This document shows, in pieces, positions 36,047-62,287 of a stretch of DNA of 64,000 nt (the first letter of the stretch is position 1; the number at the start of each line of letters is the position of its first letter). The notes under the pieces are model-generated. The model did no database searches. It was given only the letters and a program-made list of their open reading frames with translations, and had not been told where the DNA came from. Location: contig CAVVGT010000005.1 in the NCBI GenBank assembly GCA_963747775.1, forward strand, positions 3,148-67,147, read 5' to 3'. The stretch comes from an uncultured beta proteobacterium. GTDB taxonomy: Bacteria > Pseudomonadota > Gammaproteobacteria > Burkholderiales > SG8-39. Both the position numbers and the translations under genes were made by a program.

Positions 36047-36208
36047 GATCTCCGGCGGTGGGTTCGAATGCGACGGGGTCGCACGGCGTGGCTGCAAGTT
36101 CCGCGCGGTGTCGACCGAAGCGGCGACGCCTAGCTTCCGCGCGAGGCGCCACGCATGGCAATAGGCCGAAAGGCTGACCGCGCGGCCGTGCCAACGCTTG
36201 CGGCGCAA

Positions 36209-39836: not shown

Positions 39837-42800
39837 TCAGCGCTTGCTCTGTATGGCCTCCTGCAGCAGGCTTGTGGCCCTGAGCGGCGGGATCCACACT
39901 TCCAGGTCGCCCGGCTTCTCCTTCTTGGAGCGCGTCGCGTCGAGTGGCAGAAGCGACAGCCGCAGCGTGTATCCCCCCTGCGAGAGGGCGCGTTCGACCC
40001 GGTCGCGGACTTGGGCGGCGGCCCTCTCGTCCTGCGGGAAGAAGTACCGCACGTTCCCCGAGGTCCGCCTGCCGGGGACCTCCTCCGATCCCTTCACGAC
40101 CAGACCGGGAATCTGGCCGAGCGCTTTCGCCACCTGGTCCACGAGTTGCGCATCGCTTCCGTCCGCGTAGTGGAGGAACACCCGCGTCACACGCACGTCG
40201 GCGGGCGCGGTCTTGTCGCCGAGTTGCGCGAGGCGGCGCTCGGCCAGCGTACGCGTGTCGAGACGCATGGTGAGGGAGGCGACCTTGCGGTAATCCGCGA
40301 TTGCGGCGTCGACCCGGCCCATCCGCTGCAGCAGCGATCCGCGCTTGAGGTAGGCCTCGACGTCAGCCTCGACGTCATCCGGACGCAGCTCGATCGCCTT
40401 CTCGTAGTCGGCGAGCGCGGCGTCGTTCTTCCCCTGGGCATCGTGGACGACGGCACGGCGATAGTACATGGCGGGGTCCGCGGGCCGGAGATCGATCGCT
40501 ATGTCGAAGTCTTCCTTCGCGCCGGCCCAGTCGCGGGTCGTCGCGCGCAGGGCGCCGCGCAGCAGGTAGTTCTCGACCCGGCCCGGCCTGAGCTTGATCG
40601 CCATCGTCAAGTCGGCAATCGCGTTGTCATACTCCGGGTCGGCGAGTTCCGCGTACGCCTGTCCCCGCTTCGCGTACACGCGGTCGAGGTCGCTCTCGTG
40701 ATAGTCGGGGATCGCTTTCGTGTAGCGTTCCATCGCCTTCGGGTAGTTCCGCTCGGCGGCGAACGCGTCCGCTTCCGCGACCAGCAAGATCGCCACCTCG
40801 GCGCGCCCGCGCGCAAGTTGCTGTTCCGCCATCCACCACCACCAGCCGAGCGCCAGCGCCAGGCTGCAGACGACCGCCAACGCGACGGCCGCCCAGCCCC
40901 GCGTCCGGGCCGCCTTGCTGCCACGCATCTCGCCGAGGCCGATGAACTCGAGCTCCTGCGCGTTCAGATCGGCGCCGCGGGAGTCGCGCCATGCTTTGGC
41001 TGCTTGGAGCTGCGCGCCGGAGAGCAGCCCGCCGGGGTCCCGCTTGCTCTTCTCCCAGTCCGCGCGATACGCGCCCAGCAGTTCGCGCCAGCGCAGGAAC
41101 TCGCGGTCGGCTTCGACCCATTCGCGCAGTCGCGGCCATTGCTGGGCGAGCACCGGGTGCACGAGCTCGGCTGCCGGCGCGTCGGACTCGGCGGTGCAGA
41201 GCACGACGAGCCGCGACGTCGCGAGTTGCTCGAGCAGGGCGGCGACGGCTTCGCCGGGCGCCGCCTTCGACTCGAGCTCGGACCGGAGCGCGCGCCGGAT
41301 CCGGTCCGCGGCCGGATGCGGACCGACGTTCACGAGCCGCGGCAGGACGCGCTGCGCGAGCGCGCGCTCCGCGTCGTTGAGGCCGTCCAGGGCCGCGTCG
41401 GCGCGCGCGACGAGTAGCCCGCGCACACCGCCCATGTCGTCGTAGGCCGCATTGGTGAGAAAGCCTTCCCGGCGCCGCACGTACAGGCTCTGCAGCAACA
41501 GCTGGAGGAGCGGCAGGCGAAACGCCTCGGTGCCGAGATCCTCGATGATGCGGTCGACGAGGCCGGGTTCGAACGTGAGTCCGGCGCGTGCCGTCGGTTT
41601 CTCGATCGCCTGGCGCAGCTCGTCGCGCGTAAGATCGCCGAGTCGGACGACGCCCGCGTCGTCCGCGGGCACCGGCAGCGGCGTGCCCGCGAGCCGGCGG
41701 ACGAAGTCCGAGCGCGCCGCGATCACCGTCACGATGTCCGGCCGTTTGCGCTCGAGTGCGGCGACGCGCTCGAGGAAGCGCGTTCGCAGGCGGGCGTCGA
41801 AGCTCGGCGCAAACACTTTCTCGAGCTCGTCGATGAAGAGCACGTGGCGCGCGTCGGCGCCCGCGCCGGGCGCGAGGCGGGCCAGGACGCGCGTCAGGCT
41901 GGCGACCGGATCGGTGCCGGGCACGATGCGCTCGAGCCGGCGGGGCGCATCCGCGGCGGCCTGGCTGCGCCGCAGCTCGGAGAACGCGCCGGCCATCACC
42001 AGCGAGCGCTTGCCGCTGCCGCTCGGCCCGAGCACCCAGACGCGTGTTCGGGAGCGCAGGTGGTCGAGCAGCCGCGCGCGCAGCTCGTTGCGTCCGAAGA
42101 AGAATGCAGCGTCGTGCTCCTGGAACCGCTCCAGCGGCCGGAAGGGGCTGCTGACCGCCACCGCGGTCCCGCGGGTCGTCCAGGTCAGCGTGTGCTCCTG
42201 ATCGACGCCCTCGGGCGGCGCGCCTTCGACTGTCGGCTCCGGCCGCGCGGGCGCGAGCGCGGCGATGCGCGCGACGAGCGGGTCGAGCTGGTTCGCCGAT
42301 GCGCCTTCGCGCAGGTCGAGGATCTCCTCGCCGAGCCCTGGCGTCGGTGCCGGGCTCGCGCTCGGCAGCAGCACCTTGAACGTCACGAAATTGCGGCTCG
42401 CACGCACTGCCGCGACCACGTGTTGGAGTCCCTCCGATTGCGCCGGCGTGAGGCCGCCCGGTCCGATGAAGACGACGAGCGCCCTGGAATGGAAAAGCTG
42501 CTGCTCGCTGCGGCGCTGCCACTCGGGCGGCGGCACCGCGTCCAGCTCGTCCACGAAGGCGCGCAGATCGGCGCGCTTCAGCGCCGCCGCGAACGCCTCG
42601 GCGGCAGCGCTGTCCGCGGTCGCGGTCACGATGTATGCGTCGTAACTGGCGTATCGCGCCGTGAGGTCGTACTGGGCCGCGACCTGCGGCGGGGTGTCGC
42701 CGGCGTCTTGCGCGAGCGCGGCGAGCCGGGTCCCGGGTGCGGCGAGATAGGTCAATGCGTCGGCGAGGCGGTGGAATGCGGTGGCGATGCGCTCCCGCTG

Positions 42801-43652
42801 CGCCACGTTGGCGGGATCGGCGAGGATGCGCTCGTCGAACGCATACTGGGGCTCGTAGGGCACGAGCAGGTCGGCGAAGCCGATGCCTCGCGCGCGCAGC
42901 GCCTCCGGCACGCTGTCGCCGAAGGTCGCCGCGAAGCGGGCCATGAACTCGTCGAGCAGCTCCCGCCGGCGCTGCTCGATGCGGGCCGGGACGACCACGA
43001 TCTGCGGCGGACGGCTCTGCCGCAGCGCAAGCACCTGCGGCGAGAGGAAGTCCGCAGCGACGTTCTGCGTGCCGCGCACGTTCTGGTGGTTCGCCGCACA
43101 CATCATGACGATCACGTCGCCGAGCTGGTAGGCGCAGATGCCGCCCATCTCGGTGACGCCGGTGCGGCTGTCGACCAGCACGAGGTCGTAGCGCTCCGGG
43201 ACGAGCTGGCCGCGCAGCCACTCGAAGAAGAGCTCGCCTTCCCAGTTGAAGTAGAAATCCTGCCAGTCGAAGCTGCGCACGTTGAGCGCGTAGTGCTCCA
43301 GCTGCGCCGGGTCCTCGCGTTCGCCCGCCGGCATGAGGTCGAGGCAGCCGTCTCCGGGCAGTCGCTCGTACACCGGCAGGATGAACCGGCGCACGTCGCG
43401 GAAGTCCGCGCTCGCAGCCTCGCCCGAACCGACCGACATCGCGTGCTTGAACTCGAGCAGCAGGTCGAGGAGGCCGGCGTGACGGCGCGCGCTCGGCTGA
43501 TGGATCTGGAAGTACTGCTCCAGCCCGGGCGCTTCGAGATCGAAGTCGATCATGAGCACGCGCGCGCCGCGCCGGGCGAGGATGTCCGCGACGTTCGCCA
43601 TCGCCATCGAGCGGCCGACGCCGCCCTTGTACGAGTAGAACGTGACGATCAC
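39837..43652 (-). CDS. 1271-aa multidomain protein: ParA/MinD-like ATPase (KGGVGR) - TIR-like module - STAND-type P-loop NTPase - TM helix - TPR repeats - C-terminal alpha/beta domain
   Basis: YSYKGGVGRS..DSRTG; YDAYIVTATADS..; PFRPLERFQEHDAAFFFGRNEL..VWVLGPSGSGKRSLVMAG..LFIDELE; WAAVALAVVCSLALALGWWWW; repeated A..Y..AI.L.P TPR pattern. GTG start overlaps the upstream stop (GTGA). The upstream 62 codons of ORF 39837..43838 are R-rich overlap. Confidence 0.8.
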   Translation of the reverse strand: MIVTFYSYKGGVGRSMAMANVADILARRGARVLMIDFDLEAPGLEQYFQIHQPSARRHAGLLDLLLEFKHAMSVGSGEAASADFRDVRRFILPVYERLPGDGCLDLMPAGEREDPAQLEHYALNVRSFDWQDFYFNWEGELFFEWLRGQLVPERYDLVLVDSRTGVTEMGGICAYQLGDVIVMMCAANHQNVRGTQNVAADFLSPQVLALRQSRPPQIVVVPARIEQRRRELLDEFMARFAATFGDSVPEALRARGIGFADLLVPYEPQYAFDERILADPANVAQRERIATAFHRLADALTYLAAPGTRLAALAQDAGDTPPQVAAQYDLTARYASYDAYIVTATADSAAAEAFAAALKRADLRAFVDELDAVPPPEWQRRSEQQLFHSRALVVFIGPGGLTPAQSEGLQHVVAAVRASRNFVTFKVLLPSASPAPTPGLGEEILDLREGASANQLDPLVARIAALAPARPEPTVEGAPPEGVDQEHTLTWTTRGTAVAVSSPFRPLERFQEHDAAFFFGRNELRARLLDHLRSRTRVWVLGPSGSGKRSLVMAGAFSELRRSQAAADAPRRLERIVPGTDPVASLTRVLARLAPGAGADARHVLFIDELEKVFAPSFDARLRTRFLERVAALERKRPDIVTVIAARSDFVRRLAGTPLPVPADDAGVVRLGDLTRDELRQAIEKPTARAGLTFEPGLVDRIIEDLGTEAFRLPLLQLLLQSLYVRRREGFLTNAAYDDMGGVRGLLVARADAALDGLNDAERALAQRVLPRLVNVGPHPAADRIRRALRSELESKAAPGEAVAALLEQLATSRLVVLCTAESDAPAAELVHPVLAQQWPRLREWVEADREFLRWRELLGAYRADWEKSKRDPGGLLSGAQLQAAKAWRDSRGADLNAQELEFIGLGEMRGSKAARTRGWAAVALAVVCSLALALGWWWWMAEQQLARGRAEVAILLVAEADAFAAERNYPKAMERYTKAIPDYHESDLDRVYAKRGQAYAELADPEYDNAIADLTMAIKLRPGRVENYLLRGALRATTRDWAGAKEDFDIAIDLRPADPAMYYRRAVVHDAQGKNDAALADYEKAIELRPDDVEADVEAYLKRGSLLQRMGRVDAAIADYRKVASLTMRLDTRTLAERRLAQLGDKTAPADVRVTRVFLHYADGSDAQLVDQVAKALGQIPGLVVKGSEEVPGRRTSGNVRYFFPQDERAAAQVRDRVERALSQGGYTLRLSLLPLDATRSKKEKPGDLEVWIPPLRATSLLQEAIQSKR

Positions 43653-45409
43653 TTGTTCGTCGCGTGCTGGTAGATCAGACTGCTCACCCCGCGGCGGCGA
43701 TCCGGGCCGACGATGTTCTCGAAGCGCTCGAGCTTGGACGGGTCGGCGCGCGGCCGCGTGAGGATGTCGAGCGTGCCGGGCAGGCTCGCGTGCAGCCAGC
43801 GCCGCAGGCGGCGCTCCTCGCCGACGCCGAACTCGCACGCCGGGTCGAGATCGAGCTCGAAGCGGTCGAACGCGCCGGAGAGCTGCTTGCGGGTCCGCGT
43901 CTCGAGCAGCTGGTTCACGGGCGAGCCGCTATCGTCGAGCGGGGACACGGTCACGATCGCGACCTGGCCCATGGCGACGAAGGACGCGCACGCCTCCGCG
44001 ATCGCGCTGTGGAAGAGCGACAGCTCGTCTACGAGCGCAACGCACCCGGTGAGCGCGATTTGCTGGTAGATGGGCCGCAGCTCGGGATGCGCGCGATCGA
44101 GCCAGGCGTCGAACGGGTAGTACTGGAGCTTGATCTGGCGCCGCTGCGCGCTGCCGGCCACGCGCCGCCCGTTCAGCCGTTTGGCGATGTCGGCGCCGAT
44201 GTCGCGCACGGTGGTGCCGCCGAACGGCTTCCACTGGCGGCGACCCGCGCCGTAGCGCGCGTCCGGTCCGCCGGCGCGCTCGAGTGCGGCCTTGAGCTCC
44301 ATGAATTGCTTGTAGCGGTCCGGCCCGAGCTCGCCCTGGAGCGCGTCGCTGTGCTCGAGCAGCGCGACGGCTTCGTCGCGCGTCATCGCGATCACGACGC
44401 AGGGCACGCCGACAGTCGGCAGCCCGGGCTGCGTCGGCCGTCCGGCCATCGTGGCGACGACCTGGTTCGCCGCGCCACCGGCCGTCACGTCGATGAGCTT
44501 GGTAAAGGGCCACGCGGGCGGCAGCGCGTCGGGCTTCACCCCGGCGAGCAGGCCGACCAGCCAGCCGGTGCGAGTCTCCAGCACCTCCAGCGCGCGGGCG
44601 ACCTCGGCGGGACGGGAGGCGAGCTGCTCGAGGCCGGCGGGGCTGAGCCAGACGAGCGCGGAGTGGCACTGGATCGCGAGCTGCTCGAGGTCGGAAAACT
44701 CCGCCTCGGTCTCCGCGAACAGCGCCTCGGGGGCGAGCAGCGCGCTCAGCCCGGTCTTCTTGAGCTCGTCGGCGAAGGCCCCCGCCGCGTCCTGGTCGAG
44801 GCCCGGCGCATAGGCGAGCGCCGCGCCAAACGTGACCTCGCGCTGGAGCCGCGCAGGCGCTGCGGCCGAGACCGGTGGCTTCGGTGGGGGTGCGCCGCGC
44901 TGCGTCCACAGCGAGACCGCGTTCGCGACCAGGCCCGCGAGCTCGGTCGGCCCCTTGAAGAAACTCACCGTGTGCGCCTTGCCCAGCTCCTCGCGCAGCG
45001 CCTTGATCTTCGCGCCGGCGCCGTTCTCGCCGGTCGCGATGTCCATGAACTCCTCGGCCCACGGGGTCTTGGGGTCGAGGAGGAAGATCAGACACTGCTC
45101 GGCGCCGAGCGCGCCGAGCGCGGTACGGTACTCGGCCTCGGTGATCGACCACTTTTGCGGGTTCGCCGCCTCGTCCGGCACGTAGCCGTAGCGCTTCGCG
45201 AAGATGCCGACGTAGAGGTCGCACGGCGGCAGGTTCTGCGCGGAGTCGCCGGCGATGTCGCGTAGGCATTTCGCCAGGGGGCGCGAGCCGTCGGCGACGT
45301 ACTCCTCCATGCCGACGACCTCGTGTCGGAGCTGGCGCAGGCTCCTCGCGACCTCCTCGCGGTGGTCCTTCAGGTCCTGGAACGTCGAAGAGAGATAGAT
45401 CCTTGCCAT
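43649..45409 (-). CDS. DUF4062-type N-terminal domain protein (586 aa) with uncharacterised middle and C-terminal regions
   Basis: MARIYLSSTFQDLKDHREEV..DLYVGIFAKRYGYVP.. matches the DUF4062 pattern I know. GGGGGAGG RBS. First gene after a 139-nt gap. Confidence 0.65.
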   Translation of the reverse strand: MARIYLSSTFQDLKDHREEVARSLRQLRHEVVGMEEYVADGSRPLAKCLRDIAGDSAQNLPPCDLYVGIFAKRYGYVPDEAANPQKWSITEAEYRTALGALGAEQCLIFLLDPKTPWAEEFMDIATGENGAGAKIKALREELGKAHTVSFFKGPTELAGLVANAVSLWTQRGAPPPKPPVSAAAPARLQREVTFGAALAYAPGLDQDAAGAFADELKKTGLSALLAPEALFAETEAEFSDLEQLAIQCHSALVWLSPAGLEQLASRPAEVARALEVLETRTGWLVGLLAGVKPDALPPAWPFTKLIDVTAGGAANQVVATMAGRPTQPGLPTVGVPCVVIAMTRDEAVALLEHSDALQGELGPDRYKQFMELKAALERAGGPDARYGAGRRQWKPFGGTTVRDIGADIAKRLNGRRVAGSAQRRQIKLQYYPFDAWLDRAHPELRPIYQQIALTGCVALVDELSLFHSAIAEACASFVAMGQVAIVTVSPLDDSGSPVNQLLETRTRKQLSGAFDRFELDLDPACEFGVGEERRLRRWLHASLPGTLDILTRPRADPSKLERFENIVGPDRRRGVSSLIYQHATNK

Positions 45410-45548: not shown

Positions 45549-47144
45549 TCAACTCTTCAACGCTGCGGCAATCGACCGGATCGAGATTCCTTCGTTCGCG
45601 GCGTACGTGCCGTCCTTGCCGTTCAGCCGCGGCATGCCCATCTTGCCGCCCTTGTGGTGGAGCGCGATCACCTCCCAGAGCTTGGCGTTGAACACGGGGC
45701 TGCCCGAGCTTCCGCCTTCGGTGGGTGCGCGGTAGTGGAGGCGCCAGACGTCCGGGATCTGCGGCTTGCCCGCCGGCGGGCCCTCGTGATCGAGGAGCTC
45801 GTTGTCCTGGAACGAGAACGCGAGGTCGCGTCCGCCCGGATGGCCGATGATGTAGACGCGTGCCGTCGATTCCACCACCGGCAGCGCGGCGGCGACCGGC
45901 AGCGGCTCGATCCCCGTCACCGGGGTTTTCATGCGCAGCAGGCTCGCGTCATGGCGATCGGGCGGCGAGCTCCAGAGGAGCTCGCCGACGGCATAGGCGC
46001 GGTCCGCACCGGCGGCTTCGAAGACGACCTCCGCCGCGTCGGGCTGGATCCCCGGGCTCGCGCCATGCTCGTTGACGACGTGGAAATTGGTCAGGACCAG
46101 CAGCTCGTCCCTGGGCTCCCGGCCGAGGTCGCCGGCGCGCACCAGAAACCCCGTGCCGATCCGGCTGCCGAGTTGCGGGCGGATCGCGGCGACGGCGAGC
46201 GCGCGGTCGAGCCCGGTCTTCCACCAGCGGTACGTCTGCGGCCCCTCCGTGCCGAGCACCGCCTCGAGCTGCGATCGGTCCGGCGCCGGCGCTGTCCGCA
46301 AGCGCTGCAGCTCCGCACGCCCGAGCTCCAGTCCGCCGCCCGGCAGCGCCATGAGTCGCGCACGCAGGATGTTGACGAGGCCCCGGCCACGGTCATCGGT
46401 CTGTTCCAGGTCCCACACACCGGTGAACTGTCGTACGGTGCTCGCGATCTGAAACGCCTTGGCGTCGTCTGCAGCCGCATACGCCCGGACGTTGCGCTCG
46501 ACCGCGTCCCAGTCGCCCAGACCCAGCGAGGCTTCGGCCAGCGTCGGCAGATACCACTCGTCGCGCTGCTCTCTGGGCGTCGCCTCGAGCGTCGCAATCA
46601 CCTGCTGCGCGATGTCGCGGGGCTGAAGGTCCGCGGCGAGGCGCAGGCCCAGCCCGCGGGCGCGGGTGAGCAGCGCGATGAGGTTCACGCCGTGCCACGT
46701 GTTCGCGGCATGCTCCTCGAACGGCTTGCGATACGCGACGATCGCCTGCTTCAGCGCCTCGCGCGCGCCCGCGCTCGTCTTGTCGCCGGCATCGAAGAAG
46801 ATCTGCTTGTAGGCGCGGCCGAGCAGGCCCGTCGCCTCGGCCGCCTCGGGGTCGGTCTTCGGCAGCCGCTGGGCGAGCGGCCGCAGGAGATCGATCGCCG
46901 CGGTGGCCTTGCCGGTGTCGATCAGGTACTGCGCGTAGAGGCGGCGGTTCTTCGCGTCCTTCGGGTCCCGCCGGCTCACTGCCTCGGCGACCTGACCCAT
47001 GATCTCGTAGTCGCGGACGTTGCGCAGCGCCTCGACGAGCCGCTTGGCGCCGGCGAGATCCTCGACGCTCCCCAGCCCGCGCAGGTGCTGCAGCGCGTCT
47101 TTCGCGCGCTCGCGCAGCTCGTCGACGGTCGGCTCGGCGCTCAT
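45549..47144 (-). CDS. DUF4071 (TPR-like, MAP3K TRAF-binding-type) domain fused to C-terminal trypsin-like serine protease
   Basis: Start MSAEPTV within ORF 45549..48728. ..NTWHGVNLIALL.. is the DUF4071-type region. Protease triad context: NFHVV (His), DASLL (Asp), GGSSGSPV (Ser). Confidence 0.75.
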   Translation of the reverse strand: MSAEPTVDELRERAKDALQHLRGLGSVEDLAGAKRLVEALRNVRDYEIMGQVAEAVSRRDPKDAKNRRLYAQYLIDTGKATAAIDLLRPLAQRLPKTDPEAAEATGLLGRAYKQIFFDAGDKTSAGAREALKQAIVAYRKPFEEHAANTWHGVNLIALLTRARGLGLRLAADLQPRDIAQQVIATLEATPREQRDEWYLPTLAEASLGLGDWDAVERNVRAYAAADDAKAFQIASTVRQFTGVWDLEQTDDRGRGLVNILRARLMALPGGGLELGRAELQRLRTAPAPDRSQLEAVLGTEGPQTYRWWKTGLDRALAVAAIRPQLGSRIGTGFLVRAGDLGREPRDELLVLTNFHVVNEHGASPGIQPDAAEVVFEAAGADRAYAVGELLWSSPPDRHDASLLRMKTPVTGIEPLPVAAALPVVESTARVYIIGHPGGRDLAFSFQDNELLDHEGPPAGKPQIPDVWRLHYRAPTEGGSSGSPVFNAKLWEVIALHHKGGKMGMPRLNGKDGTYAANEGISIRSIAAALKS

Positions 47145-47155
47145 TGCGCCCGGCC

Positions 47156-48097
47156 TCAGAAGCGGAGCATTCGCCGCAGCGTGCTGGCGAAACTCTTCTG
47201 GCGCAGGTACTTCGTGATCGAGTGCCGCCACGCGCCGTCGTTCTGGACCGCGATGTCCTCGACCGCCGACTTGCCGCCTTTGCGGTAGTCGCTCGCGAGT
47301 ATGGGGTCGAACCCGCAGACGGGATCCAGCCGGTCGAACAGGTTGACCCAGTCGCCGGCGACCCGCTCGTGCGGGAACCCGTCCGCGCGACTCCAGCCCG
47401 GCTGCAGCTTGTCCTGGATCTCGTCGAGGCCGAGCGGGCTGCCGAGCGTGATGAATCCGTCCACCGCCGCGCAATCGGTGACTCGCTTGAGGCAGTCGTA
47501 GGCGATGACCGTGCCCATGCTGTGGGAGACGACGATGTGCGGTCGGGTGACTGCGGGCGCGCAGACCGCGTCCGCAAAACGCCGCCGGATCGTCTGCTGG
47601 ATGCGCACCGCGGGGGTGCGGCCCGGCGGTGCGAACTCCACGTCGAACAGGTAATGATGCACGTCGCTCAAGTACGCTTCGAGGACGCGTTTCTTGATGA
47701 ACCAGGGCAGCGGCACGCGCTCGAGCGCACCTTGCGGCGCTGCGGGCGCGGGGACGGGCGCGGCGGTCTCGAGCTCCGCGTCCGAGAGCGTCGTCATTTT
47801 CGCGCGCAGGGCCGCGATGAACGCCGCCTCCTCCGCGCTCTGCGGCCGGGGGGGCGAGGCGTTCCCGCCGCCATCGATCGCCGCGGCGCTGTTCTCGAGC
47901 ACGCCTTCGTAGGCCGTGAGGTCGTCCTCCGGCTTCGCGTAGAGGAGATCGGCCCAGTAGACCAGCGAGCTGCTCACGCCGAGATCGCCCAAGGGCAGCG
48001 GCTCGGCGGCCTCCGCCAGGGCGTCCCGCCAGATGCGCAGGAGATCGTCCGCCGGCGGCTTGTTCGCGATTCCGTGAATGAAGGTGACGTGCGGCAT
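47156..48097 (-). CDS. alpha/beta hydrolase (lipase/esterase-like), no signal peptide
   Basis: VTFIHGI.. and nucleophile elbow VSHSMGT (GxSxG). 313 aa. Confidence 0.65.
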   Translation of the reverse strand: MPHVTFIHGIANKPPADDLLRIWRDALAEAAEPLPLGDLGVSSSLVYWADLLYAKPEDDLTAYEGVLENSAAAIDGGGNASPPRPQSAEEAAFIAALRAKMTTLSDAELETAAPVPAPAAPQGALERVPLPWFIKKRVLEAYLSDVHHYLFDVEFAPPGRTPAVRIQQTIRRRFADAVCAPAVTRPHIVVSHSMGTVIAYDCLKRVTDCAAVDGFITLGSPLGLDEIQDKLQPGWSRADGFPHERVAGDWVNLFDRLDPVCGFDPILASDYRKGGKSAVEDIAVQNDGAWRHSITKYLRQKSFASTLRRMLRF

Positions 48098-48157
48098 GGT
48101 GCGCTTCCCCTCGTGGGTGTCGAAGCAGTCGGTCTTCGGGCGGCGACGGGCCGATTC

Positions 48158-48772
48158 CTAGAAGTCGTAGGTCGGGTCTTCGCCCAGGTCTGGAATCCTC
48201 GCGACGTAGCCGGTCGCGCCGAAGTCCAGCGGGATGGCTGCCTCGTACCCGGGGAGGCCGACCTCCTTGCGCAGCGCGTTGAGCCGGTTCATCCAGCCTT
48301 TCAGGAAGACCGCGAGGTCCGGGTTCTGCCGGGCGAGACGACGGTAATAGGCCTCGCGCGCGTCGCAGTAGGCCGCGATTCCCCGGCCGATGTCGCAGGC
48401 TGCGGCCGCTCGCTCCGTCTGCGGCCCGAAGTCGCCGTCCACGCCGCATCCGACCGCCGACTGCAGGAACCGCACTGCGCGCCCGACCCCCATGTTGACC
48501 GCGGTATCGAACTGCACGAGATCGAGTTGCTGCCGCAGGAGATCGCATCGCGGCGGCAGCCAATAGCCGCTCTCGTAGATCGCCTGCACTTCGCGGTCCT
48601 CGATCAGCTTGACGTCCCGCCGGGCGAATTGCTGCCGCGCGCGCCACGCATCGTAGACCTTCTGCGTCACGCCCTTGTTCGTCCGTCCGCCCGGATCGGC
48701 GGGATGATCTACAAAACCGCCCTCCCACCGCAGAATGAAGGGCAGCGAGCGCTCGAAGGCGGGGGACGGCAT
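48158..48772 (-). CDS. glycoside hydrolase family 108 muramidase with C-terminal peptidoglycan-binding domain, no signal peptide
   Basis: ..FILRWEGGFVDHPADPGGRTNKGVTQ.. (GH108 catalytic region) and ..VDGDFGPQT.. (PG-binding). Start MPSPAF within ORF 48158..49081. Confidence 0.75.
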   Translation of the reverse strand: MPSPAFERSLPFILRWEGGFVDHPADPGGRTNKGVTQKVYDAWRARQQFARRDVKLIEDREVQAIYESGYWLPPRCDLLRQQLDLVQFDTAVNMGVGRAVRFLQSAVGCGVDGDFGPQTERAAAACDIGRGIAAYCDAREAYYRRLARQNPDLAVFLKGWMNRLNALRKEVGLPGYEAAIPLDFGATGYVARIPDLGEDPTYDF

Positions 48773-48964
48773 GGCGTTCTCCTGTTCATGCGGACCGCGT
48801 TCCGCCGCCCGGCCCGGCCTCGAGCGCGGCCGGCAACGTCGGCCCGACTGTCGGCGCACACTGTAGGGCACGCGGCATTCCTTGGCCAGTCGACCAAACT
48901 GCATAGACCCCGGCGGCGCCGGGAACGTCGCACGGCTGCCGGCGGCCGCGGTCCGGATGGAGCC

Positions 48965-48981
48965 GGGAGACCGTGTCTCCC
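48965..48981. promoter_or_regulatory. perfect palindrome GGGAGAC-cgt-GTCTCCC in the divergent intergenic region, ~28 nt upstream of the ATG at 49009
   Basis: Read in the sequence. Candidate operator or 5'-UTR hairpin; no functional evidence. Confidence 0.2.
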
Positions 48982-49008
48982 GACGGTGAAAACCCTGGAG
49001 GGCAAACG

Positions 49009-49767
49009 ATGAGAAAGACTTTGGCAGCATCCGCGCGCGACTACGTCCTGAAGCTGGACCTTCCCTTTGCGCCGCCCGCATTCGAGGCGGTGACCGCGAT
49101 GGCGTTTTCGGACCAGCGCGAGGCGGTCGCCGTCGGTGCGCAGCTCGCGGAGTTCACCCCTGCGGTGCCGGCCGGCGTGCGCGGCGCCATCGCCGACAGC
49201 ATCCTGCTCGCGCAGCTCGCCGCCAACAAGGTCACCACCCAGACGGAGGACGTCTTCCGCTGGTACGACAAGTACATCGAGGTGCTCCAGAACATCGGCT
49301 GGCAGGTCCGGGACCTCGATTTCCAGGCGCAGCAGGTGAGCGACCAGGACGCCTGGGTGCACAAGGAGATCATCCCGGTGCTCGCGCTGCTGCTCGGGCC
49401 GCAGGCCGCGGCCGCCTCGATCGTGATCGCGGTGCTGAACGGTCTCCAGAATATGGATTCGAGCTCCCCCTGGATCACGCTCTTCGACCAGTCGAGCCAG
49501 CACGCGCGCGGCGCGAAGTTCCAAGTGAGCTACGTCGATGCCGACGCGCAGGGATCCCCGGAGATCTCGCTCCTCTGCTTCGGCATCCAGGCGGACCGGA
49601 CCATCACGCAGGTGCTGTTCTTCAAGACCTCCGCGCAGAGCGCCGAGGTGAAGAAGGCCTCGGCCAAGCTGGCCGTCAGCATGGAGCGCCTGAACTCGGC
49701 GAAGGACGCCCTTGCCGGCCGCGTGCAGCCCTTCATTGCGGACTACGTGAAGAACATCGACATCTGA
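49009..49767 (+). CDS. hypothetical 252-aa protein (no family recognised), first gene of the plus-strand unit
   Basis: MRKTLAASARDYVLKLDLPF.. with a GGAGGG RBS. One hydrophobic segment (IIPVLALLLGPQAAAASIVIAVL). 14 nt upstream of the next gene. Confidence 0.55.
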   Translation: MRKTLAASARDYVLKLDLPFAPPAFEAVTAMAFSDQREAVAVGAQLAEFTPAVPAGVRGAIADSILLAQLAANKVTTQTEDVFRWYDKYIEVLQNIGWQVRDLDFQAQQVSDQDAWVHKEIIPVLALLLGPQAAAASIVIAVLNGLQNMDSSSPWITLFDQSSQHARGAKFQVSYVDADAQGSPEISLLCFGIQADRTITQVLFFKTSAQSAEVKKASAKLAVSMERLNSAKDALAGRVQPFIADYVKNIDI

Positions 49768-49781
49768 GGCGCGGGCCGCGC

Positions 49782-51736
49782 ATGAAGCCGCACGCCTTCA
49801 TCGCCATGCCGTTCGGCACCAAGCCCGGCCACGACGGGCAGCCGATCGATTTCGACCGGGTGTACGCGGAACTGATCAAGCCCGCGCTGGAGGCGGCGGG
49901 CTGGGAGGTGTTCCGGGCCGATGAGGAGCTCCGCGCCGGCGACATCCGCATCGACATGTTCCAGGAGCTGCTGGTCGCCGACCTGGTGGTCGCCGATTTG
50001 ACGCTGAACAACCCCAACGTCTGGTACGAGCTCGGCGTGCGCCACGCGCTGCGCGCACGGGGCGTGGTGCTCGTGCAAGGGCCGCGTCCGACCCAGCCGT
50101 TCGACATCTACACCGACCGCAAGCTGAACTACCGGCTGAAGGACGGCGCGCCCGACGCCGCGCACGTGCAGGCCGATCGCGACGTGCTGGCCGCCATGGC
50201 GCGCGCCACGCTGGAGGCGGCCACCGCGCGGCCGGTCAGCCCCGTCTATGCGCTGCTCGATCACCTGCGCGAGCCCACGTGGCGGGAGCTGCTGCTCGCC
50301 GAGCGAAACGAGTTCAGCCAGGCCTATGAAGCGTGGCGCAGTCGCATGGAGATCGCGCGGCAGAAGAACCGGCCGGGCGACATCCTGGTGCTTGCGGATG
50401 AGACGCCCACCCGCGCGCTGTGGCTGGAGGCCAAGCGCGCCGCGGCGAACGGCCTGCTCAAACTGAGGCAGTTCGATTTTGCCCTGGAGCAGTTCGAGGC
50501 CGCGCTGGCGATCGACCCCGACGACAAGCCGAGCCGCGAGAAGAAGGCGGTGTGCCTCGGCCGCCTCGGCCGTTACGAGGAAGCGCGCGAGTGGACGCGC
50601 CAGCTGACCGATGACTATCCGCGGGACGCCGAGGCCTGGGCGTTGGCCGGCCGCGTCGAGAAGGACGACTGGATCAGCCGCTGGCGGCGCGCCGGCGACA
50701 CGCCGGCGCAGATGCGGGCTGCGGCCGCGGCCGAGGAGGCGAGCCTGCGGGAGGCGATCGAGCCGTACCACAAGGCCTTCATCACCGATCCAAGCCACTA
50801 CTTTTCCGGCATCAACTCCCTCACGCTGCACGTGCTGCAAAAGCACCTGGGGGGCGCACCGGACGCGACCGTCGTCGACAACCTGATCGGCGGCGTGCTC
50901 TGGGCCAGCCTGACCGCTCAGAAGCGCGACCCCAAGGACTACTGGGCGCGCGCGAGCTACGCGGAGCTCTGCCTGCTCGTGAATCCGAAGGAAGCCGTGA
51001 TCCGCGAGTTCCGCGCCGCGGTGGCCGCGGCCAATCGCGACTGGTTCGCGCTCGATTCCACGCTCCAGACGTTGAAGCTGTTGCGCGACCTGGAGTTTCG
51101 CCCCGATGAAACCGGCGCGGCGCTGGAGATCGTGGAGCGCGAAATCGCTCGCGCGAACCCGCCGTTCCTGCCGCGGCAGGTGCTCCTGTTCTCCGGCCAC
51201 ATGGTCGACGCGCCCGGACCGCGCGATGCCGCGCTTTCCGGCCGACAAGGAGCCGGTCGCCGCGCAGAAGATCGCCGCGGCGCTCGATCAGCTCGGTGCG
51301 GGCGCGGGCGACCTCGCCCTGACGCAAGGCGCGGCCGGCGGCGACCTGCTGTTCGTCGAAGCCTGCCTGCAGCGCGGCGTGCGCTGCATGCTGCTGTTCC
51401 CCTTCGAGGAACCCAAGTTCATCGAGGAGTCCCTGCTGGCGTCCAAGGACGGCGAGCGCTGGCGCGAGCGCTACTTCGCGGTCAAGGCGCAACTGAAGGA
51501 CGCGCCGCGCGATCATGCCGGCCGAGCTGGGGCCGCTGCCGAAGGGCGCCAGCGCGTACGAGCGCTGCAACCTGTGGCTGCTGTACACCGCGCTCGCATG
51601 GGGCGTGGACAAGGTGCGCTTCGTCTGCCTGTGGAACGGCGGCGGCGGCGATGGCCCCGGCGGGACCGCGCACATGTACAACGAGGTCAAGCGCCGGACC
51701 GGGCGGGTCACCTGGATCGACACCCGGAAGCTGTAG
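49782..51736 (+). pseudogene. TIR/nucleoside-deoxyribosyltransferase-like N-domain - DUF4071 (TPR-like) - C-terminal Rossmann-like domain protein, interrupted by two +1 frameshifts (~51213 and ~51510)
   Basis: Frame 0: MKPHAFIAMPFG..HYFSGINSLTLHVL..LLFSGHMVDAPG. It continues in ORF 51106..51744 (..PRFPADKEP..TQGAAGGDLLFVEAC..) and then ORF 51515..51736 (MPAELGPLPKG..CLWNGGGGDGPGGTAHM..). Confidence 0.65.
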
Positions 51737-51740
51737 GCAG

Positions 51741-53465
51741 CTAACGGCCGGACGCCGCGTGCGGCGCCGGAGTCGCCGCGTCGGCAGCGCGCGCCGGGCG
51801 CGGCGCGACCGCGTCGAGCAGCGTCGCCATCAGGCCGCGGATCTCGGCGGCGGTGCTGCGCTCCACCGCGAGCAGGCGCGCGGTCGGCGCCGGCGAGCGG
51901 CGGTTGGGCGTGCCGGGCCCGACCGCCGACCAGAGCACGCGCAGCGTCGCCTCGAGGAAACCGCGATCGGTGGTGCCGTCGACCACGAATACCACGCGTG
52001 CGAGCTCGATCGCCTGGAGCAGCTCGCCGAGCTCATACACGCAGCCGCGGTTGGCGGGCGCGAAGCTGCGCAGGTCCATCAGGACGACGTCGCTCTCCTC
52101 GACGAGCCGGTGCATCGTCATCTGCCAGGTGTCGGCGTGGCAGAAGAACTCGTTCACGCGATAGCGGCCGTCGGGGTCGCGCTCCTGGTCGATCGCCGCG
52201 ATCCGCCGCTCGAGGTCGGGGCGGCCGGTGACGAAGCGCCCGGCGAGCTCGCCGCTCGCGAACTCGAGGAACTCGTGCGGCTCCACGGTGCTCGTGACGA
52301 GATCCGGGCCGGCGATCATCGACACGCTCCCGAGGCGCAGCCAGTGCGCGCGCAGCACGTCGAAGAACCGTTCCGAGCGGCTGCCGAGCGCGAAAACGCG
52401 AAGCAGCAGAAGCCGGCGTGGTGCCGGCGCCGGGCGGCGCCGCAGCAATGCGAAGGCGACGATCGTCGCGAGCTTGTAGGCGAGGAACGCGGCGAGCCCC
52501 GTCGCCGCCCAGGTCGCGCCTTCGAAGGCGAAGGCGACGGACTGGCTGATGCCGAAGAACAGGAACACCGTATCGATCGTGAGCGATTGGTCGGAGAGCC
52601 GCTTGCGCTGGTAGCGCCGCCCGAGCCGGCGCAGCACGATCCAGCCGCCGAGGGCGAAGAGCGCGAAGCCGGACACGAGCGTGTACACGAAGATCTCCGT
52701 GCCGCCGAGGCCGAGGAGCGCGCCGGCCTCGACCGCCGCGCGCATCCGGTCGTCGCTTGCGCCCACCACTTTGAGCGCGAGCAAGCTGCCGCCCAGGGCC
52801 AGAACGGCGAAGGTCACGACCAGGGGTCCGACGGCGCGGATCGGACGGGCAAGAAAGAGAAAGAGCAGCGCAGTCTCCGCGCCGTTGGTGATGACCCAGA
52901 AGACCGCCGGATCGTACCAACGGAGATCCGGGCTGCGCGCGAGCGCGATGGCCGCAAGCAGCGCGAACACGCCGCCGTATGCGCCGAGCAGCTTGAGGCG
53001 CGCTGCGCGCGTCGTGCCGGCCACGATTCCGGCCGCGATGACCGCCGGCCAAAGGAAAGTCCAGAAGAACGTCGCGAGCTTCACCGGCCCGACGCCTGCG
53101 TCGACGGTGAAAACGGTCCACGGCACCGACATCACGCAGGCGTACGCCGCCCCGCCGAGACCGTAGATGGCCGCGGCGTGCCAGGGTCCGCGCATCACGT
53201 CCCGGATCCCGGGTGCTTCATCCGCGGCGGAGCGTGCGTCGGCGAACGCGATCTTCAGCGCGTTGGCCGGTCCCGCCGCCGCCGTGCGCACTTTAGCCGT
53301 CGCGTCCCCGCCGCGCGCGGCGGTGTTCATCGACCGCAGCACCGCGCGGCGGTACAGCCGCAGCAGCAGCAGCGAGACGGGAAGCGCGAGGAGCGCGCCG
53401 CCGAGCAGCACCGACGGCAGTTCGCCCGTGATCGCGAGCGTCGTGGGGTCCGTCGTCGCGCTCAT
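51741..53465 (-). CDS. 574-aa polytopic membrane protein (about 10 TM) with ~220-aa cytoplasmic-type C-terminal domain
   Basis: Start MSATTDP overlaps the TIR gene stop (ATGA). There are many hydrophobic helices. The C-terminal ..LLLLRVFALGSRSERFF..VVLMDLRSF..VVFVVDGTTD.. suggests an alpha/beta domain. No family recognised. Confidence 0.6.
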   Translation of the reverse strand: MSATTDPTTLAITGELPSVLLGGALLALPVSLLLLRLYRRAVLRSMNTAARGGDATAKVRTAAAGPANALKIAFADARSAADEAPGIRDVMRGPWHAAAIYGLGGAAYACVMSVPWTVFTVDAGVGPVKLATFFWTFLWPAVIAAGIVAGTTRAARLKLLGAYGGVFALLAAIALARSPDLRWYDPAVFWVITNGAETALLFLFLARPIRAVGPLVVTFAVLALGGSLLALKVVGASDDRMRAAVEAGALLGLGGTEIFVYTLVSGFALFALGGWIVLRRLGRRYQRKRLSDQSLTIDTVFLFFGISQSVAFAFEGATWAATGLAAFLAYKLATIVAFALLRRRPAPAPRRLLLLRVFALGSRSERFFDVLRAHWLRLGSVSMIAGPDLVTSTVEPHEFLEFASGELAGRFVTGRPDLERRIAAIDQERDPDGRYRVNEFFCHADTWQMTMHRLVEESDVVLMDLRSFAPANRGCVYELGELLQAIELARVVFVVDGTTDRGFLEATLRVLWSAVGPGTPNRRSPAPTARLLAVERSTAAEIRGLMATLLDAVAPRPARAADAATPAPHAASGR

Positions 53466-55018
53466 CGGGCGAGCGTGAAATCCACGAGCTCGAAGGTGGC
53501 GAGCTCCTGCGGCACGTTGCGCTCGTAGGTGCGCGCGTCGACCTTGACGAAGCGCTTCGCCGCGGGCGCATACCAGAGGGTGACGATCGAGTGCAGCGGG
53601 ATGCGGTTGATGAACGTGCTCCCGCGCCCTTCGGCCACGACCTTGATCGCATCGAACGTGCCGGCCGGCACGGTCACCTGCTCGCGCCCCGCGATCCGCA
53701 TCGCCATCTCGATGGTGGCATCGGAGGAGAGCTGGCGCTTCACCGTGGGCAGCGACGCGCCGTCGTCGAGTCGGTAGAACGCCTGCAGGTAGGGCGCGAG
53801 ATCGGGCGGCGCGTATTCGAGACCAGAGTGGCCGGAAAAGCGTGGCTCGCGCGCGACCACGATTCGGCTCTGGTAGTCGGGGCGGTTCGACACGCGCAGC
53901 AATTCGCCGACGCCGGCCTCGCTCACCGTGTCGACCCGGTAGGTCATCCGGGCGACCTCGGCACGGCGGAAGCCGTCGACGTAGCGATAGGTCCAGGTGT
54001 CGCCCGGCGCGGGCATCAGCGGCGGGCGCGCCGCGACGGCGACCTTCGGCGGTGCAGGCTCGGCGGCCGGAGGCTTCTGGGCCTCCGCGGCCGGTGCCGC
54101 GGGCGCGGGGGCGGGCGGCGCGATGGCGGCCTGCGGTGCGGGCGGCGCGACCGGTTTCGGCTGCGCCTTGGGCGCCTGCCGCCGCTTCTCCTCGTCGGCC
54201 TTCCGCGCGGCCTCCGCGGCGGCGCGCGCGCGCTCGGACTCGGCCTGCGCGATGCGCCGCTGGTCTTCCCGACGCTGGTCTTCCTCCTGCGCGCGGCGCG
54301 CGGACTCGGCCTCCGTCGCCCGAGCCTTCTCGTCGATGCTCCGTTGCTTCGCATCGAGCTCGGCCTGGCGCTTTGCGGCCGTCTCCTCGGTGCGGCGGCG
54401 CGCCTCGTCGAATGCTCTCTGCCGCGAGTCCAGCTCGACGGCGCGGCGGTCGACGTCGTCGAAGTAGCGCATGACCCCGAAGGTGCCGGCGGCGACGATT
54501 GCAACGCCGAGGACGGCCGGAACGAGCCGGCGCAACCACATCCGCCAGTCGGCGCCCGCCGTGCCGCGCTCGACGCGGATCGCCGCCAGCGTCTGCGGCG
54601 GCGTGACCCCGGGCGTGAGCAACGCCCTCAGGTCGGAGACGAGCTGGCGGAAGCCGGGCGAGGTCTGGTCGCCGTGGTAGCCGACGAGGTTGGCGGCGTG
54701 GATACTGCGAAAGCCCATGGGCGGCTCGACCGCGTCGATCAGCACCGGCACGAGGATGCCGCGCTCGAGCCCTTCGTTCGCCTCGTCGCGGACCCAGCGC
54801 GAGGTGATCGAGGCTTTCGACCACAGCACCAGGACGCAGTCCGACTTCTTGATCTCGGACTCGATGACGCCGGCGAAGGTCTTGCCGGCCTGCAGCTTGT
54901 GGTCCCACCACACCGCCCACCCCAGCGCCTCGAGATCGGCCGCGATCTCGCGCGCGCGGTCGCGGTCCTCGCTGGCGTAGCTGAGGAAGATGCGAGGCAC
55001 GACCGCGCCGCCGGTCAA
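53462..55018 (-). CDS. TIR domain protein with TM helix, charged coiled-coil, Pro/Ala-rich linker and C-terminal beta-rich domain
   Basis: RIFLSYASEDRDRAREIAADLEALGWAVWWD..CVLVLWSKASITSRWVRDEA (TIR, conserved Glu ~aa 79). TM LVPAVLGVAIVAAGTFGVM (aa ~165-183). Confidence 0.8.
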   Translation of the reverse strand: MTGGAVVPRIFLSYASEDRDRAREIAADLEALGWAVWWDHKLQAGKTFAGVIESEIKKSDCVLVLWSKASITSRWVRDEANEGLERGILVPVLIDAVEPPMGFRSIHAANLVGYHGDQTSPGFRQLVSDLRALLTPGVTPPQTLAAIRVERGTAGADWRMWLRRLVPAVLGVAIVAAGTFGVMRYFDDVDRRAVELDSRQRAFDEARRRTEETAAKRQAELDAKQRSIDEKARATEAESARRAQEEDQRREDQRRIAQAESERARAAAEAARKADEEKRRQAPKAQPKPVAPPAPQAAIAPPAPAPAAPAAEAQKPPAAEPAPPKVAVAARPPLMPAPGDTWTYRYVDGFRRAEVARMTYRVDTVSEAGVGELLRVSNRPDYQSRIVVAREPRFSGHSGLEYAPPDLAPYLQAFYRLDDGASLPTVKRQLSSDATIEMAMRIAGREQVTVPAGTFDAIKVVAEGRGSTFINRIPLHSIVTLWYAPAAKRFVKVDARTYERNVPQELATFELVDFTLAR

Positions 55019-56371: not shown

Positions 56372-56382
56372 CGCGACCCCTT

Positions 56383-59186: not shown

Positions 59187-59207
59187 GGCGTCATCTCCCT
59201 TCCCCCC

Positions 59208-61358: not shown

Positions 61359-61364
61359 CGTGCC

Positions 61365-62273: not shown

Positions 62274-62287
62274 GGTAGTTCCCTCGT

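Follow-up and report, generated by a model that had tools for sequence, protein, structure and literature searches.

A putative protease-gated module with a lipase-like hydrolase, a signal-less muramidase and a Cyt-like protein in an uncultured betaproteobacterium

How could a cell make use of a muramidase that has neither an export signal nor a holin? This question is raised by three tandem genes at positions 45549-48772 of a 64,000-nucleotide stretch of contig CAVVGT010000005.1 (hereafter the window; all coordinates refer to it) from an uncultured betaproteobacterium. The genes, here named A, B and C, encode a GH108 muramidase, an α/β-hydrolase and a protease. Judging from sequence comparison, structure prediction and gene neighborhoods, A, B and C together with a divergently oriented gene, U1, probably form a protease-gated conflict module of the abortive-infection type. 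Our confidence differs among the parts of this reading: it is high for B-C as a protease-effector conflict module, good for the membership of A and U1, and moderate for an outcome in lysis. We infer that B, A and U1 are substrates of C and that the trigger is phage infection. A preliminary description of the region, made from the sequence alone, had already proposed the logic of a suicide or abortive module, which fits the evidence given below.

Gene calls and conservation of the locus

The G+C content of the window is approximately 70%, and long stop-free shadow open reading frames (ORFs) are therefore frequent in it. Codon-position GC and a codon-usage model trained on obvious genes gave three minus-strand genes at 45549-48772. 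The features on which the argument rests are as follows.

48158..48772, minus strand: gene A, GH108 muramidase with a PG_binding_3 domain and a tail (204 amino acids; Pfam; AGGAGA precedes the ATG)
47156..48097, minus strand: gene B, α/β-hydrolase, lipase/DDHD-like, predicted zymogen effector (313 amino acids; codon of S193 at 47519-47521)
45549..47144, minus strand: gene C, TPR-S sensor domain and S1 (Trypsin_2) protease, the constant component of the module (531 amino acids; Pfam)
48773..49008: divergent intergenic region between A and U1, with presumed promoters (236 nucleotides; from the gene coordinates)
49009..49767, plus strand: gene U1, predicted Cyt/volvatoxin-like cytolysin fold, candidate protease-activated membrane effector (252 amino acids; P-x-(F/L)-E26 near the N-terminus)

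A and B are separated by 60 nucleotides and B and C by 11 nucleotides, exactly as first described, and the earlier domain calls (GH108 with a peptidoglycan-binding domain, α/β-hydrolase and protease) are correct by Pfam and by the SHSMG and WEGG motifs. All three genes are intact, each being full length compared with its homologues. In none of the three products did a crude check of hydropathy and N-termini detect a transmembrane segment or a signal-like start, so that they look cytoplasmic, in agreement with the reported lack of an export signal. Approximately 40 of the 48 called genes, spread across the window, were scanned for families; among them there were no phage structural, integrase or holin families, no gene transfer agent (GTA) or tailocin genes, and no VgrG, Hcp, PAAR, other type VI secretion system (T6SS) or other secretion families. 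The muramidase is thus not explained by a prophage, as had been noted from the lack of phage structural genes nearby. Codon-position GC also showed a 1059-amino acid stop-free ORF that spans the three genes (45549..48728, minus strand) to be a shadow ORF. The 531 codons at its 3' end coincide with gene C, past 47144 it crosses B and A in another frame, and this high-GC artifact would top automatic ORF lists. Between 43.5 and 49.9 kb, a promoter scan gave no match to the sigma-70 consensus, and a terminator scan gave one terminator-like site, which lies inside C on the wrong strand; this count is below chance.

A profile scan using one genome per species yielded 79 C-centered loci (numbered with the prefix L) from many phyla, with which the window proteins were compared by tblastn. 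Gene order was counted in the 75 loci with enough upstream flank and depended on the identity of C to the query, as listed here.

C identity of at least 60%, 19 loci: A-B-C in 14, A-C in 1, B-C in 1
C identity of 44-60%, 14 loci: A-B-C in 2, A-C in 7, B-C in 3
C identity below 44%, 42 loci: A-B-C in 0, A-C in 0, B-C in 24

B lies immediately upstream of C in 44 of the 75 loci (approximately 60%) and was found by profile search in 47 of all 79. Where C identity is at least 44%, A is upstream in 24 of 33 loci (A-B-C in 16 and A-C in 8); A is absent from the entire group below 44%, which includes Bacteroidota, Actinomycetota, Deinococcota and Verrucomicrobiota. B and C each have more than 1800 detectable homologues, and the top 120 clusters are 69-94% identical over the full length, with the same TPR-S plus protease architecture in the listed C homologues. 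Such conservation is unusually high for a spread over Burkholderiales, Alphaproteobacteria, Acidobacteriota and others. Pairwise identities are correlated between B and C (r = 0.86), A and C (0.69) and A and B (0.72; Mantel p ≤ 0.001). A bare B-C pair is also found on plasmids of Agrobacterium, Rhizobium and Sinorhizobium, one of which (Agrobacterium) is conjugative. By gene order and correlated divergence, B-C is the conserved core, whereas A is an accessory effector limited to one clade that can pair with C without B. The three genes are syntenic in relatives and have no prophage genes beside them, the opposite of the two findings that the preliminary description had named as speaking against its proposal.

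In loci without A and B, other genes take the position upstream of C. These encode Amidase_2 proteins (two Bacteroidota loci), Endonuclease_NS (NucA; L033), TIR plus SH3, TIR plus a deoxyribosyltransferase-like domain, a WD40 protein and a weakly matching GDSL lipase; a radical-SAM protein in L027 is not effector-like. A constant protease with variable effector-type neighbors is a hallmark of conflict systems. Since A and Amidase_2 are nonhomologous wall hydrolases in the same slot, attack on the wall can be argued to be a real output. The two Amidase_2 genes (L057 8380-9345 and L061 8752-9777) lie directly upstream of the TPR-S-trypsin gene, and their products have acidic N- and C-terminal extensions and a VFE|P motif just after the catalytic domain.

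Predicted zymogen B and its putative activator C

B has only a sub-threshold Pfam match (Abhydrolase_6, 1.7e-3), and PADLOC and NCBIfam contain no family for it. In an alignment of 47 sequences, the N-terminal ~55 and C-terminal ~185 residues are well conserved; the conserved positions are H8-G9 (the HG oxyanion motif), S193 in SHSMG, D258 and H292, of which Ser-Asp-His are near-invariant. The segment between the two conserved parts is the following.

47720..47905, minus strand: central insert of B (residues 65-126), predicted excised inhibitory segment, flanked by the invariant E64 and E126

The insert is free to vary in sequence and varies modestly in length. An AlphaFold2 model of B had a mean predicted local distance difference test (pLDDT) score of 67, with values below 50 at residues 65-80 and 117-146, so that confidence falls right after the E64 and E126 region. 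Foldseek placed the Nir2 DDHD domain first (E 3.9e-6), followed by the NirD domain of Nir1 and then by bacterial lipases among other α/β-hydrolases; given these DDHD and lipase fold matches, the initial lipase-like call is reasonable. DDHD1 and DDHD2 are intracellular phospholipases A1 (PLA1s).

Hydrolases linked to VMAP and to caspases were reached from remote tblastn matches of B on plasmids. The B family aligned over the full length with a Streptomyces hydrolase encoded directly upstream of a VMAP protein (hhalign probability 99.4%, E 9e-22, 289 columns), and over the C-terminal half with a Leptolyngbya hydrolase encoded upstream of a giant Peptidase_C14 protein (98.6%, E 8e-16). According to Kaur et al. 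2020 (PMC7159879), this hydrolase family is "always" beside caspases, and Evans et al. 2025 (PMC12642450) showed that one member, LcHydrolase, is an inactive zymogen that is cut twice by its caspase into pieces of 8.1, 4.7 and 19.8 kDa, of which the N- and C-terminal pieces together kill the cell. B is a full-length homologue of this protease-linked family, and we predict from these alignments that it is a protease-activated zymogen death effector.

The B-C pair resembles the modules of these two studies in having a gene for a cytoplasmic α/β-hydrolase of approximately 300 amino acids beside that for a sensor-bearing protease. Like LcHydrolase, B has three parts (an N-terminal part, a middle predicted to be dispensable and a C-terminal part) and would be a latent effector licensed by two cuts. 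Unlike LcCaspase, C is an S1 trypsin-fold protease with a TPR-S domain; in Kaur et al. 2020 (PMC7159879), the partner of trypsins is Trypco, and the hydrolase goes with caspases. The LcHydrolase sites are R|G, whereas the candidate sites of B follow Glu, and the operon described here differs further in adding a muramidase and, often, a Cyt-like protein.

Three elements of C are relevant to its proposed role.

46614..47039, minus strand: TPR-S / MAP3K_TRAF_bd helical-repeat region of C, residues 36-177 (PF20308, PF13281)
46263..46265, minus strand: codon of C E294, a candidate site of autoprocessing, within the linker motif Q-(L/F/Y)-E-(A/K/R)-(V/I)-(L/F)-G between the two domains (77-sequence alignment)
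45660..46157, minus strand: Trypsin_2 domain of C, residues 330-495, triad H355/D399/S480 (Pfam 2e-20)

The N-terminal half of C had been assigned to DUF4071. That profile, now MAP3K_TRAF_bd (PF13281), does match (2.7e-9, 37 bits, cut-off 24.1), but TPR-S (PF20308) is the better description (5.4e-19, 69.1 bits, cut-off 27.6). Pfam detected no NTPase domain in C, NCBIfam has no family for it, PADLOC gave weak protease matches only, and no homologue was found in 50,697 phage genomes. Because B falls in a family of protease-activated zymogens, C is probably a sensor plus activating protease rather than a third effector; of the three effectors proposed at first, A and B are retained as predicted effectors and C is not.

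All 77 aligned sequences have the catalytic triad of C. For the protease domain, the solved sequences that come nearest are all glutamyl endopeptidases (Esp, V8 and exfoliative toxins), with which it shares a GGxSGSPVFN...(I/L)H motif, at weak E-values of 0.005-0.08. In the alignment with Esp, T475 and H496 correspond to Thr190 and His213, and each is conserved in 76 of the 77 sequences; G499 corresponds to Gly216 of the V8 type and is invariant in the 26-sequence A1 alignment. A review of glutamyl endopeptidases (PMC5508998) describes Thr190 (Ser/Thr190) and His213 as mandatory in every member and reports that in V8-type enzymes the new N-terminus formed by processing completes the S1 pocket and is needed for activity. 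In contrast to these enzymes, C is predicted to be cytoplasmic and is fused to a 300-residue repeat domain, and the similarity is marginal (E ~0.005). In the linker motif of C, position 294 is E in 70 sequences and Q in 7, P2 is L, F or Y in 77/77, and G298 is invariant (77/77).

A, B, C and U1 each have few conserved Glu residues. Those at predicted junctions are preceded by L, F, Y or H, namely, E64 and E126 in B, E177 in A, E26 in U1 and E294 in C; two further conserved Glu residues with the same kind of neighbor lie off the junctions, the catalytic E17 of A (in WEGG) and E376 inside the protease domain of C. The (L/F/Y)-Glu junction motifs together with the V8-like S1 residues of C suggest Glu-specific autoprocessing and substrate licensing. 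The exact cleavage sites (E64, E126, E177, E26 and E294) are predictions in which we place lower confidence.

Muramidase A, the Cyt-like protein U1 and a possible route to lysis

In A, Pfam identified Glyco_hydro_108 (PF05838) at residues 11-95 (1.7e-29, 102.6 bits, cut-off 21.2) and PG_binding_3 (PF09374) at residues 98-164 (3.9e-12, 46.6 bits, cut-off 24.6). The catalytic WEGG starts at residue 16 and is conserved, with E17 present in 24 of 25 sequences. Over residues 1-168, A shares 42-48% identity with the GH108 endolysins of phages that match it best, and an endolysin match for A was the only PHROGs match obtained; the score against the NCBIfam holin-associated N-acetylmuramidase (NF040573) was 66 bits, with a cut-off of 240. 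A shares with phage GH108 endolysins the WEGG motif, the PG_binding_3 domain and the lack of a signal peptide, and it differs from them in a conserved C-terminal tail of approximately 35 amino acids containing GLPG(F/Y)E.

48161..48265, minus strand: C-terminal tail of A (residues 170-204), candidate cleavage or docking element, with the invariant GLPG-(F/Y)-E177-(A/S)

The L, P, G and E of this motif are each present in 25/25 aligned sequences. Most listed phage homologues stop at approximately residue 165-169, so that they do not cover the last ~35 residues of A, although Sulfitobacter phage endolysins reach residue 194. By these comparisons, A is endolysin-derived, with a tail that appears to be module-specific.

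The phage-like identity and the PHROGs match would also fit an endolysin left behind by a prophage and lying beside B-C by accident. We give this explanation almost no credence: A occurs upstream of C in 24 loci of different classes and phyla with correlated divergence, it has the extra tail that most listed phage homologues do not cover, no phage genes are nearby, and an unrelated Amidase_2 fills the same slot in Bacteroidota. A prophage remnant was ruled out by this synteny and context.

Since A has no signal peptide, a membrane lesion would be needed for it to reach the wall. In phage cassettes a holin accompanies the endolysin, but A has no holin, spanin or phage context among the scanned window genes, and the proposed membrane breachers here are instead a lipase-like zymogen and a Cyt-like protein. 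The preliminary description had also remarked on the missing holin partner; in doing so, it overlooked U1, which travels with the protease, and the lipase/DDHD-like fold of B.

An AlphaFold2 model of U1 based on a 40-sequence alignment had a pLDDT of 77.5 and a predicted template modeling (TM) score of 0.82. The top 13 Foldseek matches were all Cyt1Aa, Cyt2Ba, volvatoxin A2 or Evf, the best being Cyt1Aa (6t1a; E 1.7e-7, probability 1.0, TM score 0.45). U1 had no PADLOC, PHROG or NCBIfam match. The possibility that it is a bacterial gasdermin was considered and dropped because the fold search gave Cyt toxins. Cyt1Aa is a membrane-perforating protoxin activated by the loss of ~30 N-terminal and 5 C-terminal residues. 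U1 thus resembles Cyt δ-endotoxins, volvatoxin A2 and Evf in its modeled fold, with terminus trimming as a known mode of activation in Cyt1Aa, and differs from Cyt toxins in being predicted to be intracellular and self-directed rather than secreted and in having no sequence-level match to them. We found nothing in the searchable literature that links Cyt-like proteins to phage defense.

U1 is present in 10 of the 79 C-centered loci, mostly with A and without B, and lies directly upstream of C in L008. It adjoins a TPR-S-trypsin gene in every context examined, and three homologues picked independently of C are all beside such a gene, in the order B-C-U1 or in the layout of the window with an added patatin gene. 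The family comprises 1408 representative clusters at E ≤ 1e-3. Five proteins (P0375, P0376, P0390, P0404 and P0432) join a U1 domain to Peptidase_C14 (N- or C-terminally), to TIR_2 plus a receiver domain, to DUF4062 or to Endonuclease_NS, and several further fusions of 700-1600 amino acids have no recognizable partner domain. Because U1 is always beside the TPR-S-trypsin and is fused elsewhere to caspases, it is a candidate for the membrane-breaching partner. In the metagenomic locus L086 (6886-8052), A-B-C and U1 are arranged as in the window and are followed by genes for a patatin phospholipase and a 671-amino acid TPR-S protein; from its family, the patatin is another predicted lipid-targeting effector in the same neighborhood. 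U1 may correspond to one of two "constant components" of Kaur et al. (2020, 2021), to which it can be likened by description only: EACC1, a protease-activated pore former beside caspases with a small-residue patch in its transmembrane helix, or EACC2, an α+β domain N-terminal to a caspase, an architecture also seen in P0404.

Classic effectors of the T6SS include muramidases and GxSxG lipases, and Cyt-fold proteins are toxins of eukaryotic membranes. On these grounds, A, B and U1 might be exported antibacterial or anti-eukaryotic toxins, for which C would be a cargo-processing or maturation protease. We regard this as very improbable, because the proteins have no signal peptides or transmembrane segments, the 60- and 11-nucleotide gaps are too small for immunity genes, none of the scanned window genes encodes VgrG, Hcp, PAAR or a secretion component, the homologues of B include intracellular death effectors linked to caspases, and caspase and TIR domains are among the fusion partners of the U1 domain. 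The more specific T6SS-cargo version was ruled out for lack of immunity and secretion genes.

Under the protease-gated reading that we prefer, events could proceed as follows. A trigger would be received by the TPR-S domain of C, possibly together with a second TPR-S protein such as the product of the neighboring gene U2 (see below), and C would become active, possibly through a self-cut at E294. C would then remove the insert of B by two cuts, freeing the latent lipase- or phospholipase-like hydrolase, would trim the N-terminal propeptide of U1 to give a Cyt-like membrane permeabilizer, and would perhaps trim A. The lipase, the cytolysin or both would breach the inner membrane from the inside, after which cytoplasmic A could reach the wall and the cell would lyse, in a holin-free, protease-licensed self-lysis. 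Such a breach would answer how a cytoplasmic muramidase works without a holin. The most specific form of the proposal is that one Glu-specific, TPR-S-gated protease processes itself and then licenses at once a PLA1/DDHD-like lipase, a muramidase with an inhibitory tail and a Cyt-like pore former; we put this forward tentatively, as a possibility less likely than the general scheme.

Several observations weigh against this reading. C and the glutamyl endopeptidases show weak similarity (E 0.005-0.08), confined to the C-terminal half of the domain, and the Glu motifs may instead be structural or docking elements. LcHydrolase, known to us by description only, is cut at R|G by a caspase, and B has no conserved R-G; even the characterized member of this hydrolase family, LcHydrolase, has no known substrate (PMC12642450), and the model of B is of modest quality (pLDDT 67). 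For U1, the fold match is only moderate in TM score (0.45; model pLDDT 77), and neither the query nor 40 homologues gave a Pfam match even at E ≤ 10, so that Cyt toxins are not matched at the sequence level. None of A, B and U1 is represented by a model in PADLOC 2023. The loci were chosen through C, and their frequencies are conditional on it. Finally, U2 is frameshifted here, and the local system may be partly decayed.

Lysis might also serve another end, A-B-C and U1 being a domesticated device that releases GTAs, tailocins, vesicles or public goods rather than one for anti-phage suicide. There is a precedent in the immune-like LypABC protease system, a repurposed trypsin-type module that lyses Caulobacter for GTA release; the endolysin ancestry of A and the predicted attack on both membrane and wall would suit such a role as well. 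Neither GTA, tailocin nor phage structural genes were seen among the scanned window genes, however, and the module is mobile across phyla and plasmids, has swappable effectors that include the non-lytic NucA and TIR, and lies among genes typical of conflict systems. A release device is accordingly a rather unlikely explanation.

The nearest described trypsin-centered arrangement is the trypsin-NucA "System 3" of Kaur et al. 2020 (PMC7159879), with effectors linked to effector-associated domains (EADs). Like the present loci, it is centered on a trypsin, is mostly proteobacterial and is proposed to deploy effectors by proteolysis; lysozyme and peptidoglycan-peptidase effectors were noted in such EAD-linked/trypsin systems, and NucA lies upstream of one C homologue (L033). 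Its description differs in mentioning neither TPR-S nor an α/β-hydrolase, and A, B and C have no EAD match. Protease-licensed latent effectors, including this hydrolase family, are already known from predictions made in 2020 and from a preprint of 2025. What we did not find in the searchable literature is the hydrolase with a TPR-S/S1 protease, tailed GH108 and Cyt-fold co-effectors, and the Glu-site logic. Full-text searches returned nothing relevant on TPR-S, PF20308 or the TRAFs-binding domain in conflict systems, the 2020 and 2021 papers from the Aravind laboratory mention neither TPR-S nor DUF4062, and the recent defense papers that we examined do not mention this gene combination.

That death effectors licensed by proteases are a dominant logic in bacterial immunity is a recent finding, and the module would pair this class of hydrolase with a different type of protease and sensor. 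Its links to two wall hydrolases and a cytolysin-fold protein point to the cell envelope as the target of the hydrolase, and it offers precise predictions of cleavage sites. If the reading is true, a cell could turn a signal-less endolysin on itself with no need of a holin, and the Cyt toxin fold would be extended from insecticidal toxins to self-directed immunity. Under the most specific form of the proposal, this would be the first immune role of the Cyt cytolysin fold in bacteria, and the outcome would be a bacterial pyroptosis-like inside-out lysis that includes degradation of the wall. Since the proteins are 70-90% conserved across phyla and plasmid-borne, one experimental system could speak for thousands of loci.

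Neighboring genes and the surrounding island

The genes flanking the A-B-C and U1 cluster include the following.

43649..45409, minus strand: gene D, DUF4062 protein (586 amino acids; starts 139 nucleotides after the end of C; Pfam, start and ribosome-binding site)
39837..43652, minus strand: gene E, KGGVGR-motif ParA-like ATPase with TIR_2, nSTAND1 and TPR (1271 amino acids; Pfam, NCBIfam)
49782..51736, plus strand: gene U2, TIR-like domain, TPR/TPR-S and a C-terminal domain of ~170 amino acids (Pfam, PADLOC; tblastn with the L077 homologue in three frames)

The stop codon of D overlaps the start of E (ATGA), and the C-terminal ~470 amino acids of D belong to no recognized family. In iterative profile searches, DUF4062 was found near C in 2 of the 79 loci and nSTAND1 within 10 kb of C in 11; the nSTAND1 gene of L026 and that of L059 immediately precede B-C, and C-U1 modules have nSTAND1 beside them in L083-L085 and L087. 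The DUF4062/STAND unit is thus adjacent and on the same strand, as the preliminary description stated, but it is not an obligate partner.

A, B, C, D and E might nevertheless be one five-gene system, in which the nSTAND1 domain of E, with D, would sense the invader and activate C, which in turn would license A and B. C and D are co-directional and only 139 nucleotides apart, L039 has the same B-C-D-E order, nSTAND1 recurs near C in the loci just named, and Evans et al. 2025 (PMC12642450) report protease-effector pairs coupled to many STAND sensors. Against this, 68 of the 79 loci have no nearby nSTAND1 and DUF4062 is rarer still, the B-C pair stands alone on a conjugative plasmid, C has a predicted sensor domain of its own (TPR-S), D and E overlap each other and are set apart from C, and defense islands gather unrelated systems by chance. 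Compared with STAND (Avs-like) systems, moreover, C has no fused NTPase, and nSTAND1 is not consistently encoded nearby, though it is next door in the window. We consider a five-gene system unlikely, if less so than a release device, and D-E is probably a separate unit that is a recurrent but not obligate neighbor of the protease-gated module.

Compared with the intact L077 homologue (650 amino acids; 82% identity over the first piece), U2 is disrupted by frameshifts at two places, near 51216 and near 51511. These frameshifts explain both an odd 1248-amino acid ORF at 49782..53528 and an orphan ORF with high third-position GC at 51515..51736, and U2 is either a pseudogene or the product of an assembly indel. 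A U2-type TIR-like domain is found within 10 kb of C in 23 of the 79 loci, and at least two TPR-S proteins are found in 16.

The left part of the window (~1.6-34 kb) consists of metabolic and transporter genes. From ~34.6 kb onward, it is an island rich in conflict-system domains: a Peptidase_M6 protein, a metallo-β-lactamase (MBL)-fold protein, a weakly matching EAD2 protein, E and D, C-B-A, the divergent U1 and U2, a TIR protein and several genes without a family. The window has no tRNA genes and hence no tRNA-marked island boundary.

Other groupings in the island were observed as well. At 34652-37609 on the minus strand, the MBL-fold gene (36209..37609), whose product weakly matches the AVAST Avs1a MBL hydrolase at its N-terminus, and the Peptidase_M6 metalloprotease gene (34652..35980) form a second possible protease-effector pair; M6 is not one of the protease classes (trypsin, caspase and subtilisin) with which MBL modules have been reported. 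At 51741-55018 on the minus strand, U3 (574 amino acids, no family) and the TIR_2 protein gene U4 (518 amino acids) overlap by 4 nucleotides and have the appearance of a two-gene unit; in L001 and L048, too, C has a U3 homologue in its vicinity. Beyond them, a six-gene block, U5-U10 (55130-63073, minus strand), has no Pfam family except for one weak Dyp-peroxidase-like match. The block recurs near C homologues in two distant metagenome-assembled genomes, one alphaproteobacterial and one gammaproteobacterial (L011 13450-18922 and L045 167-5669), and may be another conserved multi-gene system.

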